Shown piece after piece: positions 2,799 through 5,700 of a stretch of 64,000 nt of DNA. Source of the stretch: an uncultured Verrucomicrobiota bacterium (lineage in GTDB: Bacteria; Verrucomicrobiota; Kiritimatiellia; CAIQIC01; Lenti-01); the NCBI GenBank assembly GCA_964393515.1, contig CAYMTY010000003.1, forward strand, positions 42,002 to 106,001, read 5' to 3'. The first letter of the stretch is position 1, and each line of letters opens with the position of its first letter. The position numbers and the translations under genes were made by a program. Below the pieces are notes generated by a model. That model saw only the letters and a program-made list of their open reading frames with translations. It did no database searches and had not been told where the DNA came from.

Positions 2799-5700
2799 TC
2801 AGTACCCCTGCTTGCCCAAATGGAACGGCTTGACGTCCAGCGACCCCAGGTCGCCTTCCCAATCGAAGGAAAGTTTGATTTCCTTGTTGTCCCGCGGCAG
2901 AACTTTCGTGCCCGGCGGCAACGCGTTTTTCAAAACGACCAGATTCAGCAGCGTCTGGCGCTTGGCGCCTTTGCCCAAGTGCGTCGCCACCGCCGAGTTG
3001 GCCTTTTTCCTGGGATCGGACGGAACATCCACCTTCTGCCAAGAGTCGCTGCCTTCAACTAACTCCCAGAAATCTTGCCCTGGCGGAGACCCTGCCGCCT
3101 TCTTATCGGGCTTGGCCGGGCGATCCACCTCCTGCCAACCGTTGTGGCCCTCGACGAATTCGTGCAAATTGTTTTTGTAAACATCAACGCCACCTTTTGG
3201 AACAGACGGTGGCGGTGCGCTGATGCCGCCGAACTGCGGCGTCCAGGTGTTGCCAACGAGGTCGAGCTGCCAGGTCTTGATCTCGTGACGTGTACCCACC
3301 GCCAGCCTGTTTTGCCTTATTCTTCCTTCTCTTACTCCTCTTTCCCATTCTCTTTGTCGTCTTTCCGCTTTTTGAACTTCCAATTTGACATTTTCAAAGG
3401 CAGCAAGCTGATCTAGCACGAGCTCTTTTTCCGCTCCGAAGTCTTCGTATAGCCGGGTCGCCACCGTTCCATTCGCGCTGGGCAGGTCCAGGCCGAACCG
3501 ATAGGCAAATTCCGCCCGCTCGATTTCGCGCAGACGATTCCTGCGATTCCGCGCGAATTCGGCCGGGGCTTGTTTCACAAACCATTCCATCATCCACGCG
3601 TTATGAAAGGCTTCAAAGTAGTTGAACTTGATGAAGTAAGGCGTTGTTCTAAATGTCTGCCAACGGGATCTGGCAACGGCGGTCGCCTTATCCAGATCCT
3701 TGAATGCTTCTTCCAGGGCCTCAGGATCGTAATGGTTCTTGTAATCGTCCGGGTCATCCACCGGACCCCAGGAATTGCTGCCGTCGACAAACCCCCAGAG
3801 GTCATGCCCTGGCGCATCCGCATGGCCCACAACCTTCTTCTTTGGATCGGCCGGGACATCCACCTTCTGCCAGGAATTGTTGCCTTCTATGTACTTCCGC
3901 AATTCCGGATCCGGCGTATTCACCTCGCCATTGATATCGGCGAAGTTGACGGGGTTGGCGCGGGCGTAGACGTAGGGATTGAGGGCGTGGGGGTTGGCGG
4001 TTTGGGGCCAGAGGGGTTCGGGGGAGAGGAAGGCGCGGGTGCGGGCGTCGTACCAGCGGGCGCGGACGTGGTAGAGGTCGCCCGTGCCTTCGGCGCGGAT
4101 GCCGTAGCGCCCGAGGAAGCGGAACGGATTGCCGAGCGCGGACGGGGCGGGATCGAGTTCGAGTCCGCCGGGTTCGTAGGCGTAGGCTTCGGCGACGGCG
4201 CCGTTGGTATCCACCAGCGCGATGGCGTGGCCGGAGCGGTCGAAGCGGACGTGGTGCACGGCGTGGCCGGGGGCCTGGGCCACGGCGTAGAGCAGCGCGC
4301 CGCCGGGCGTCCAGACGTACCAGTTCGTGCCGTCGTCCACCAGCGGCGCGCCGCCGATGGCCGGATGGCACGCCAGCGGTTGGCCGTCGCGGGCCATGAT
4401 GTTCCCGAATGCATCGTACTGATTCGTCACGCTGTCCACGGCGGCAAGCCGTCCGTCCGCGCGCCACGCGTAGGCGTGGCGGTCGTCGGCGGTGCGGCGG
4501 CCGAGGGGGTCGTAGGCGGCGGAGGGATTTGCGAGCTGTGCCGCGGCGTCGAATGAATTCACGTCCGCAGCGGCGGCCAGCAGCGCCCCGGCGGGCTTGG
4601 GTACCTCGCGGGTTTCGGAAACCAGCCGCCCGGCGGCATCGTAGACGTACTGCAAATCGATGCCGGGGGTGGCCTGGATGCGCGTCACGCGCCCGGCGGC
4701 GTCGTAGGTGAATTCGTTGGTGCCGCCGTGGCTGTCGGTCTGGCGCACGAGGCGGCCGTCGGCGTCGTATTCAAATCCAACCTGCGTGCCGGTCAGCGCG
4801 TCGGACACCGTCGCGAGGCGCCCGCTGACCGGATCGTAGGCGTAGGCCACGGCGAACGCGCCGTCGGCATAGGCCACCGCCGCCAGCCGCCCGCCGGGGG
4901 TCCACGCGGCGGCGTAATTGCGGCCGTTGACGAGCGCATTGGTGGCGCGTCCTTCGCCGTCGCGGGCCAGCGCCACGCCGTCGGCGGCCGCCAGCCGCCC
5001 GGCGGCGTCGTATTCATAAGCGAGCGCCAACCCGGCGGAATACACCCGCCCGGTCACCTGCCCCGCCGCGTCGTACCGCACGTCCACGGTCGAGCCGTCG
5101 GCGCGCAGGAAACGCGCCACGCGCCCGAGTTCGTCGCGCTCGCAGGCGTTGGTGCGGCCGAGCGGATCGACGTCCTCCAGCCAGCGGCCCATGGGCGTCC
5201 AGGCGCGCGTCCATTCGTGGCCGCCCAGGTCCGCGATGCGCACCACGTTGCCCAGCGCGTCGCGCTCGTAGGCGGCGAAACCGCCGCCGGGGAGCGTCAC
5301 GCGCGCCAGGCCATCGAGCAGATCGTATTCGTACGCCGTGGCGCGGCCTTCGGCGTCGGTTTCCGCCACGAGCCGGCCCGCCGCGTCGTATTCGTAAATC
5401 GCGACTCCGCCGGCGGCATCCACCGTGTTGGTGACGCGCCCGAGGGCGTCGCGCCGCAGCGTCTGCACGTGGCCCAGCGGGCTGGCGACGGAGGCCAGCC
5501 GTCCCGCCGCGTCATAGGCGTTGGTCCACGCTTCCGCCCCGGCGCGACGCACCAGCGGTCGGCCCGTGGCGTCGTAGTCCGTTTCCACGGCCACGCCGTC
5601 GGCATCCGCCGTCCGGACGCGGCGCCCGGCCGCGTCGTATTCGAACGCGGTTTCGCCCCCGGCGCGGTCCACGACGGACGTGACCTGCCCGAGCGCATCG

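Follow-up and report, generated by a model that had tools for sequence, protein, structure and literature searches.

RHS shells are understood almost wholly as containers for enzyme toxins, which are paired with immunity proteins and delivered by type VI secretion system (T6SS) or toxin complex (Tc) machinery. An RHS gene from Kiritimatiellia raises the question of whether this picture covers every such shell. The gene lies in a stretch of 64,000 nucleotides from an uncultured bacterium of this class (Verrucomicrobiota; assembly GCA_964393515.1, contig CAYMTY010000003.1, positions 42,002 to 106,001 of the forward strand), which we refer to as the window; its product ends in a long C-terminal tip that a preliminary description, made from the letters of the window alone, had assigned to an RHS toxin. 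The reading that we prefer, and to which we give somewhat less than an even chance, is that this tip is a C-terminal region specific to its lineage and mosaic in make-up, carried by an RHS shell that is exported by Sec, that it is not a classical toxin domain and that it works with a co-encoded partner. The architecture of the protein, the orphan status and mosaicism of the tip, selection on its conserved tail, linkage to the partner gene and a Glu substitution in the autoprotease site are shown by the analysis.

The RHS shell protein and its tip

The gene and the parts of its product that bear on this question are given below, with positions in amino acids (aa) counted from the start of the protein.

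2799..8483, minus strand: coding sequence of the RHS/YD-shell protein, 1894 aa plus the stop codon at 2799-2801 (open reading frame and translation)
8412..8483, minus strand: Sec-type signal peptide, aa 1-24 (MAKAVRVFWVSAMVWLLAAEGAEA), without a lipobox Cys (by inspection of the sequence)
3927..4136, minus strand: RHS repeat-associated core domain with the plug and autoprotease region, aa 1450-1519 (TIGR03696 and alignment to 8h8a)
2802..3923, minus strand: tip, 374 aa, aa 1521-1894, after the RHS core and before the stop codon at 2799-2801
3843..3905, minus strand: Trp hairpin unit 1 (ELRKYIEGNNSWQKVDVPADP), aa 1527-1547 (repeat alignment and hairpin model; strand-turn-strand by DSSP at low confidence)
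3741..3806, minus strand: Trp hairpin unit 2 (HDLWGFVDGSNSWGPVDDPDDY), aa 1560-1581 (repeat alignment and hairpin model)
3189..3743, minus strand: central helical insert rich in Arg and Glu, aa 1581-1765 (composition, third-position G+C and relatives)
3237..3284, minus strand: common motif WQLDLVGNTWTP at the end of the insert (comparison with relatives)
3108..3173, minus strand: Trp hairpin unit 3 (NNLHEFVEGHNGWQEVDRPAKP), aa 1771-1792 (repeat alignment and hairpin model)
3012..3077, minus strand: Trp hairpin unit 4 (QDFWELVEGSDSWQKVDVPSDP), aa 1803-1824 (repeat alignment and hairpin model)
2802..2999, minus strand: basic tail at the C-terminus, aa 1829-1894, shared by all relatives found

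The enclosing open reading frame (ORF) extends from 2799 to 8624 on the minus strand, and the ATG at 8483 yields the 1894-aa product. An identical 1894-aa sequence is present in a public protein collection (sources NCBI and Logan). Because exactly this protein is encoded by eight contigs from at least six sequencing runs, the gene model and the sequence are real and recurrent. Its N-terminus is the same in two of the relatives described below, P0003 and L008.

Membership of the RHS family, as claimed previously, was confirmed. The Pfam model RHS_repeat (PF05593) matched 26 stretches of the whole protein (E = 3.9e-132), the NCBIfam model TIGR01643 matched 19, and TIGR03696 scored 47.9 bits at aa 1450-1519 against a cut-off of 32.5. 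With many tandem YD (RHS) repeats and a closing RHS core domain, the product is thus an RHS/YD-shell protein. Other Pfam results at E ≤ 1 were a weak match to TEN_YD-shell (37.7 bits against a cut-off of 50) and one chance match to a domain of unknown function (DUF); no NHL domain was found at this threshold, and the Pfam scan detected neither an FN-plug nor a PAAR domain in the protein. The mature shell amounts to 159 kDa and the tip to 42.6 kDa.

The RHS core terminates in ...NPVNFADINGE. What follows has no Pfam or NCBIfam match and is not RHS-like, in agreement with the preliminary description, which had set off the last ~370 aa at 2799-3920; our coordinates are 2802-3923 plus the stop codon at 2799-2801. 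The tip is made up of four Trp hairpin units, placed two and two around the centre rich in Arg and Glu, and then the tail. The internal duplication reported earlier is real, since the N-terminal and C-terminal hairpin pairs align with a local score of 149, against 27.7 ± 5.8 for 500 shuffles. The flanking arrangement stood, but the proposed ~50-aa module is itself two copies of a smaller unit, a Trp hairpin of 22-32 aa that occurs four times with the consensus [DN][LF][WH]x[FLY][IV][ED]Gx[ND][SG]W[QG]xVDxPxxP. A hidden Markov model (HMM) of the hairpin, run against the six-frame translation of the 64-kb window, found exactly these four units and no others. The duplication is old, because the copies are only 45-65% identical in DNA. 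DSSP of the AlphaFold model, whose confidence here is low, gives three of the four units as strand-turn-strand.

The four hairpin units of the relative P0001 match Kelch_4 (PF13418) at positions 28-47 of 49 (E = 4.4e-9), and no Kelch match was obtained for the window units at Pfam E ≤ 1. A full four-stranded Kelch blade repeated five to seven times was not found, P0001 alone giving half of the profile. Kelch blades and a propeller were rejected on these grounds, and the resemblance alone was kept. Judged by their sequences, the window units are best placed as Kelch-strand-like Trp hairpins outside the Kelch repeats.

Comparison of the tip with Pfam, NCBIfam, PADLOC and PDB sequences gave no meaningful match, and with PHROGs a single weak, sub-threshold match (E = 0.005) to a family of unknown function. 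A phmmer search of 1.84 billion cluster representatives returned two proteins, both through the C-terminal repeats and the tail, while a word-indexed search of 5.8 billion proteins returned one relative of the whole tip and two tail fragments. No toxin domain was therefore recognisable in the tip by sequence, whether in the libraries or at the scale of billions of proteins, and the earlier statement that it belongs to no known toxin family holds. The tip is hydrophilic (grand average of hydropathy, -0.81) and has no hydrophobic or membrane-like segment. AlphaFold gave a mean predicted local distance difference test (pLDDT) score of 42.6 for the tip with an alignment of five sequences, and of 32.2 for the core end plus tip with four.

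Base composition changes where the core ends. G+C is 70% in the core and 55% in the tip, and G+C at third codon positions (GC3) steps down from 0.86 in the core to 0.65 in the tip precisely at their junction, a fall that is likewise seen in the tips of all relatives. Within the gene the centre has the most foreign codon usage (GC3, 0.56), and the tail (0.81) is near the host value. Exchanged toxin cassettes behave in this way, and the step at the boundary thus favours the explanation that the protein is a classical polymorphic RHS toxin. The new toxin domain would then be the centre, with or without the tail; the shell would enclose it, and an autoprotease of a Glu/Asp variety would sever it behind DINGE. 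Immunity would be unneeded, the target being something other than the producer, such as a eukaryote or a distant competitor to which the toxin comes from outside. We regard this explanation as rather unlikely. The low AlphaFold confidence is compatible with it, as an encapsulated cargo may be unfolded, whereas the failure of every library and search to match a toxin family speaks against it.

The size of the tip also counts against an encapsulated toxin. Three-turn shells (RhsA, teneurin and BiTLP) hold domains of ~15 kDa, the BiTLP cavity measuring about 44,000 cubic angstroms, and four-turn Tc cocoons hold ~30 kDa (PMC8765631, PMC13018210). By our own estimate the protein volume of the tip is about 52,000 cubic angstroms. 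At 42.6 kDa against ~15 and ~30 kDa it exceeds any documented encapsulated RHS cargo, which gives a hint, and only a hint, that perhaps not all of it fits inside the shell.

Mosaic relatives, the helical centre and the tail

Relatives were recovered at about nine loci, several of them fragments, through searches of protein collections, exact look-ups and genome and metagenome scans. Their core ends are 85-90% identical to that of the window protein, and their tips are mosaics of the following composition.

P0002 (fragment, locus L003): tip of 141 aa with two hairpins and the tail, without the centre
P0001 (locus L004): four tandem hairpins, a different centre and the tail
P0003 (loci L001/L002; full length, 1812 aa): one hairpin, a P0001-type centre, an extra segment and the tail
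L008 (Kiritimatiellia metagenome-assembled genome (MAG), JBFXHR010000014.1): seven tandem hairpins with S/T/A/P/G-rich linkers and the tail, nothing else
L007 (Opitutia MAG, SABN01000006.1): one hairpin, a duplicated helical module and the tail
L009/L010 (metagenome): a degenerate hairpin, a homologue of the window centre, a P0003-like segment and the tail; L006 is a frameshifted assembly of the same locus
L005: a distant, probably decayed tail fragment with the partner gene still 3' of it

Hairpin copy number therefore ranges from none or one degenerate copy up to seven. L008 is syntenic with the window (ptsI, metK, RHS gene, partner gene) and on this ground carries the orthologous locus; the synteny likewise marks the window as DNA of a Kiritimatiellia-like bacterium.

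Tips that differ sharply among strains with 85-90% identical core ends would suit a polymorphic toxin. What these tips retain argues the other way. Relatives with such core ends keep only hairpins and the ~65-aa tail; in L008, with its seven hairpins, and P0002, with its two, no other domain is present and there is no room for an enzymatic toxin. Relatives that lack the centre domain, the syntenic orthologue among them, nevertheless have intact genes. The toxin assignment of the preliminary description is only partly supported, and nothing found here shows the tip to be a toxin. The classical layout of a toxin tip is moreover reversed: the last ~65 aa, at the extreme C-terminus, are conserved in all relatives, and the highly variable part is internal.

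The centre of the window tip contains 11% Arg and 10% Glu and is helical in the low-confidence AlphaFold model, and its earlier characterisation as an Arg/Glu-rich helical core was apt. Its sole homologue is found in the tip of L009/L010 (and in the frameshifted L006), with 30% identity over 164 aligned columns and a pairwise E value of 2e-15. The centre found no match in 1.84 billion proteins, and a profile built from the window and L010 centres found nothing at E ≤ 1 among 5.8 billion. None of the 48 positions that are invariant between the window centre and its L010 homologue is a His, Cys or Ser, residues of catalytic type, which is a further point against a toxin. An HNH-type 'AHH' motif in the L010 centre was considered and rejected; it is not conserved, the window having FEAFHN at this place.

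A motif of the form ...DLxxN[TV]W[TS]P stands directly after the hairpin array in P0001, P0003 and L007, and after the helical domain in the window (aa 1738-1749). This position, together with the codon usage of the centre, suggests that the helical domain was inserted later into an array of hairpins followed by the tail, which would have been the ancestral state.

The tail, of ~65 aa, is the single piece kept in all relatives. Its motifs are A-x-HLG[KR]GxKRQ and K[EK]I[KR]LSxDWEGxxGSLDVKPF[HK]LG. Between the window and three relatives, the ratio of nonsynonymous to synonymous substitution rates (dN/dS) is 0.31-0.32 for the tail, which indicates purifying selection; the ratio is similar to that of the core end, and dS is 2-4 times higher in the tail. 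A tail profile gave chance-level matches only against PDB sequences and Pfam, and in the searches run the tail was found on no protein outside this RHS family and its fragments. The tail was also compared with the YD repeats, as FDWEG resembles YDxxG. An HMM of the protein's own 31 YD units did not separate the tails (-1.1 to -1.9 bits) from 500 shuffles, the best of which reached 2.3, and a terminal YD repeat was rejected.

As the sole invariant part of the tip, basic, extreme C-terminal and under purifying selection, the tail might be a C-terminal export or sorting signal for some hitherto unnamed secretion route of the Planctomycetes-Verrucomicrobia-Chlamydiae (PVC) lineage, the rest of the tip being passenger or linker. 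We consider this very improbable. The protein already has a Sec signal, the tail contains neither a hydrophobic helix nor a known sorting motif, and the partner, which would need the same route, has no tail. No linked secretion genes were found among the window ORFs scanned, and a tail confined, in the searches run, to one RHS family and its fragments is a further difficulty.

One distant orphan tail fragment (NTIKLSFDWEGS*GSMDIKPFKLGK), with in-frame TGA codons that the source translates as Trp, was observed at ~1428-1830 of L005/L011 (Ga0068714_10041374). No RHS gene lies upstream of it, an AAA_14/DUF4143 gene lies on the opposite strand and a YD-partner-like gene is still present downstream. 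The fragment is either a decayed cassette or part of an organism that recodes TGA.

The autoprotease site and the co-encoded partner

Characterised RHS proteins contain an aspartyl autoprotease, with two catalytic Asp residues in DPxG...DPxG(L), that frees the C-terminal domain (PMC8765631, PMC13018210). The catalytic residues are D1324 and D1346 in RhsA (PMC8765631) and D2116 and D2140 in BiTLP, where the motif is DPxG-X18-DPxG with a conserved Arg (PMC13018210). The corresponding positions in the window protein are the following.

4008..4025, minus strand: SPEPLW, aa 1487-1492, at the first DPxG position, with Glu1489 for the catalytic Asp (alignments to 8h8a and 8qja)
3924..3938, minus strand: DINGE, aa 1516-1520, at the second DPxG(L) position (sequence and alignment)

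Replacement of DPxGL by DINGE, noted in the preliminary description, was borne out. Asp1516 and Gly1519 are kept, Pro is changed to Ile, and the residue that precedes the expected cleavage point is Glu; the counterparts in relatives are DVDGR, DVDGL, DVNGR and DVSGR, with Arg or Leu before the cut. That account was incomplete, as the more important deviation is at the first motif. SPEPLW aligns to QQDPIS of 8h8a and to QQDPI of 8qja, and ADING falls at the second motif. Because SPEPLW aligns at the first DPxG of solved Rhs proteins, the first catalytic Asp is Glu1489 in the window protein. The spacing between the catalytic positions is 27, against the canonical 22-24, and both the Glu and the longer spacing are family-wide. 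The window protein consequently lacks the bipartite motif with two catalytic Asp residues 22-24 apart, of the form DPxG...DPxG[LM] seen in YenC2 and TccC3. The core domain is otherwise intact and retains the Gly, the second Asp and the conserved Arg; these residues, with the above-cut-off core match, count in favour of a toxin that is still released by cleavage. Against such a toxin stands the Glu, since a D-to-N change at either catalytic Asp abolishes cleavage of RhsA (PMC8765631).

The loss of the first catalytic Asp and of the second-motif Pro, and the spacing of 27 instead of 22-24, also favour a different explanation, in which the protein is a teneurin-like uncleaved scaffold or adhesin. 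The autoprotease would be dead and the C-terminal region would remain attached, partly outside the shell; the hairpins would form a multivalent binding string, and the tail would tie the RHS protein to its secreted partner or to the cell surface. This too we judge unlikely, and slightly more so than a classical toxin. The DPxG-X18-DPxG motif is absent from the uncleaved metazoan teneurins (PMC13018210). When the core-end profile of the family was compared with PDB entries, the alignments were weak throughout; among the best was Drosophila teneurin-m (E = 0.63, not significant), whose uncleaved plug has, in this non-significant alignment, the same long spacing as the window family. The S/T/A/P/G-rich linkers between the L008 hairpins are typical of extended extracellular proteins, and the copy number varies. 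The Sec signal, the absence of an immunity gene, the conservation of a secreted partner whose domains are of adhesin type (InlB B-repeat or resembling a beta-helix) and a tip larger than known encapsulated cargoes (PMC13018210) point in the same direction. However, with no NHL or FN-plug found by Pfam the protein is not teneurin-like by definition, the post-core residues lie inside the closed shell in bacterial RHS structures (PMC13018210, PMC8765631), and Glu can in principle supply the catalytic carboxylate. The hairpins, finally, match no known binding domain, the partial Kelch_4 match being confined to one relative.

Second RHS genes were observed beside two of the relatives. In the Opitutia MAG (L007, 12602-17032) an unrelated RHS gene has a canonical core end, SADPIG...SDPNGL, and a ~100-aa tip. 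This core end matches 25 solved RHS chains (YenC2, TccC3, Tse5, RhsA, TLP and others), and DPxG...DPxG[LM] is seen in the printed alignments. A canonical RHS gene beside one of the tail type in L007 shows that both types coexist in these lineages. In L008 (12740-18460) a second RHS gene of 1907 aa lies 3' of the partner gene and has no counterpart in the window; its core end reads SPEPIW...FADPSGR, and its ~400-aa Pro/Ala-rich tip, which lacks the tail, has no significant similarity to the window tip. A relation of the window centre to this tip through a common 'RFGLD' was likewise rejected (blastp not significant).

Directly behind the RHS gene of the window lie the partner gene and a short DNA repeat.

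1837..2796, minus strand: co-encoded secreted partner, 319 aa, with its ATG at 2796, 2 nt past the RHS stop codon
2739..2785, minus strand: heptad DNA tandem repeat, copy 1 (AATATCC/AATGTCC, ending in ...TCAAGGG), overlapping the partner start codons
1776..1829, minus strand: heptad DNA tandem repeat, copy 2, just past the partner stop codon

The preliminary description had stated that no immunity-like ORF follows the RHS gene. This held, no small immunity-like ORF being found 3' of the RHS gene at the window or relative loci, but it missed that the next gene encodes a conserved secreted partner, a YD protein of 319 aa. From its N-terminus the partner consists of a heptad-encoded peptide, a signal peptide, two YD repeats, an InlB-B-repeat-like domain and a conserved C-terminal domain; Pfam matches were to RHS_repeat (E = 1.2e-7) and Flg_new_2, and the exact sequence is present in the public collection. 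A homologue lies directly 3' of the tail-bearing gene in L001/L002, L004, L005, L006, L007, L008, L009 and L010, which is everywhere that the downstream sequence suffices; L003 ends too soon past the stop codon. Across loci with unrelated tip centres the partner remains 64-76% identical, and for this reason it is unlike a cognate immunity protein. An immunity function was rejected, given its signal peptide, its YD repeats and the lack of co-variation with the tip. A classical toxin is further disfavoured by the lack of an immunity gene at any locus, with the downstream gene not co-varying, and by the lack of PAAR, VgrG, T6SS and TcA genes among the ORFs scanned in the 64-kb window.

The N- and C-termini of the partner are conserved, and its middle is InlB-like or, in L001, long, Gly/Asn-rich and beta-helix-like. 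In the latter, the partner of P0003 (L001, 15451-17127), a Gly/Asn/Val-rich middle of ~350 aa has the look of a right-handed beta-helix. Replacement of the middle in L001 indicates that the partner is itself modular.

Under the reading that we prefer, the shell would carry a largely unfolded, hydrophilic tip as cargo. The constant tail would act as a functional handle that docks either with the co-encoded YD partner or with the shell; the hairpins would serve as a variable-length spacer or binding string, and the helical insert may be a strain-specific payload. Several points weigh against this proposal. The roles of tail, hairpins and insert are ones that we infer from sequence, and the interaction of the tail with partner or shell is pure inference. 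Both AlphaFold models are unreliable (mean pLDDT of 42.6 and 32.2) and hence lend no structural support. Classical polymorphic toxin tips, too, are strongly variable and low in GC3, and because the core domain is otherwise intact (Arg, second Asp and Gly present, match above cut-off), a toxin may still be cleaved off and released. The family, moreover, is known from about nine loci only, several of which are fragments.

If the idea of a tail that works with the partner holds, there would be a second, bacterial route to non-toxin or non-canonical delivery functions of RHS shells, and hairpin, helical centre and tail would count as three sequence modules new to science. If the centre proves to be a toxin, it would represent a new family, found so far only in this small RHS group. 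As far as their sequences tell, hairpin, centre and tail are undescribed modules, restricted within the searches made to a small PVC-associated RHS subfamily.

The heptad repeat is imperfect, with 5-6 units, and ends in ...CAATGTTCAAGGG on the gene strand. It occurs at only two sites in the 64 kb (8 matches against 0.03 expected), and the two copies bracket the partner gene. Copy 1 encodes the N-terminal peptide of the partner, SNIQYPMSNIQC, and copy 2 is followed by ~400 nt without a gene. The element is found at the same place in L001, L003, L004/L010 and L007; in L008, copy 2 precedes another RHS gene by ~190 nt. The element may be a site of regulation or of recombination. A phase-variation switch was not supported, as six contigs of the same strain did not differ in copy number. 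Logan contigs of 6-7.4 kb that carry the identical RHS protein were observed in SRR34875126/7, SRR8925744/725/820 and SRR11845627 (L012-L017). Two of the eight contigs with this protein stop within the heptad repeat; assemblies therefore seem to break at the repeat, or at RHS sequence present in several copies.

The other neighbours of the RHS gene in the window are housekeeping genes, namely metK, ptsI, hprK, lptB, lptA, a KDO-8-P synthase-like (kdsA-like) gene and a gene for a penicillin-binding protein (D-Ala-D-Ala carboxypeptidase). At 57866-60127 on the plus strand a 753-aa protein with REase-ARP and DUF4300 adjoins a 1003-aa UvrD-like helicase (60788-63799, minus strand); the two may act together in defence or in DNA processing, with no relation to the RHS finding. 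Three large ORFs have no Pfam match: 18661-21255 (minus strand, 864 aa; threshold E ≤ 0.001), 25424-28240 (minus strand, 938 aa) and 33367-37470 (plus strand, 1367 aa; E ≤ 1e-5 for both of the latter). Some of these may be spurious opposite-strand ORFs in high-GC sequence.

Comparison with known RHS systems

The T6SS-associated Rhs effectors (P. protegens RhsA, 7Q97; Vibrio Rhs, 8H8A; Tse5) likewise have a YD shell closed by an RHS-associated core, and their non-RHS C-terminal region also begins straight after D-x-x-G, varies between strains and has atypical codon usage. The window protein differs from them in having a Sec signal in place of PAAR/VgrG linkage, Glu for the first catalytic Asp and DING for DPxG. 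Its tip is of 42.6 kDa against about 15 kDa and has a conserved extreme C-terminus, and a secreted YD partner, not an immunity gene, lies 3' of it. Four marks of an Rhs toxin-immunity system were looked for in the window and not found: a pair of catalytic Asp residues at the canonical spacing, a C-terminal domain recognisable as a toxin, a cognate immunity gene and, among the ORFs scanned, a link to a delivery apparatus.

The BC cocoons of Tc toxins (TcdB2-TccC3 and YenB-YenC2) are similar in being large RHS cocoons, and theirs hold an unfolded hypervariable region of ~30 kDa. Because their targets are eukaryotic they need no immunity gene; the window locus likewise has none. The shell-start motif ...LPLLELGGPLGLGFTLRYDS... 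of the window protein probably resembles the start of TcB-type shells. In contrast to the Tc cocoons, the window shell is a single polypeptide of 159 kDa, for which neither a TcA nor a propeller that would bind one was detected. The canonical DPxG...DPxG[LM] of TcC proteins is missing from the window protein, and no ADP-ribosyltransferase-like or other toxin fold is recognisable in its tip.

Sec-dependent RHS toxins of the WapA type, from Gram-positive bacteria, share with the window protein a signal peptide followed by an RHS shell and the absence of an injection apparatus. In WapA the shell is accompanied by repeats that bind the cell wall and by a tip recognisable as a nuclease, and WapI is its immunity gene. 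The organism of the window, in contrast, is diderm (lptA and lptB lie nearby), and its locus has no immunity gene. With Kelch_4 (PF13418) the likeness is confined to the hairpins, whose consensus DLW-x-[YF]-x(5-6)-W-x-x-[VL] resembles blade strands 3-4. Only half of a blade is represented, and a propeller is unlikely because the linkers are charged or S/T/P-rich rather than beta-strands. A full-text literature search returned no paper that joins Kiritimatiellia with Rhs or YD repeats.

Teneurins and the bacterial teneurin-like proteins are Sec-exported YD shells, as is the window protein, which in addition has weak TEN_YD-shell matches and a core end spaced like that of teneurins. Metazoan teneurins lack the protease motif and keep their C-terminal region attached, whereas the bacterial teneurin-like proteins keep DPxG-X18-DPxG, ~15-kDa toxic C-terminal domains and cognate immunity genes (PMC13018210). 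The canonical motif, the ~15-kDa toxic domain and the immunity gene are all inapplicable to the window; Pfam found no NHL or FN-plug in its protein, with the qualification that an FN-plug has to be judged on structure. The Sec-exported subfamily of Kiritimatiellia and related bacteria breaks several rules of RHS proteins at once, having a conserved C-terminus, a variable internal array, an orphan insert, an altered dyad, no immunity gene and a conserved YD partner. One speculative and rather improbable extension of these findings is that an RHS subfamily of the PVC lineage gave up the toxin-immunity logic in favour of a two-protein extracellular system with a constant tail, a variable hairpin string into which further modules may be inserted, an altered autoprotease and, as second protein, the co-encoded secreted one that opens with two YD repeats. 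If this were true, bacteria would have put RHS shells to a new use much as teneurins did, or would deliver proteins in a new way that dispenses with immunity.

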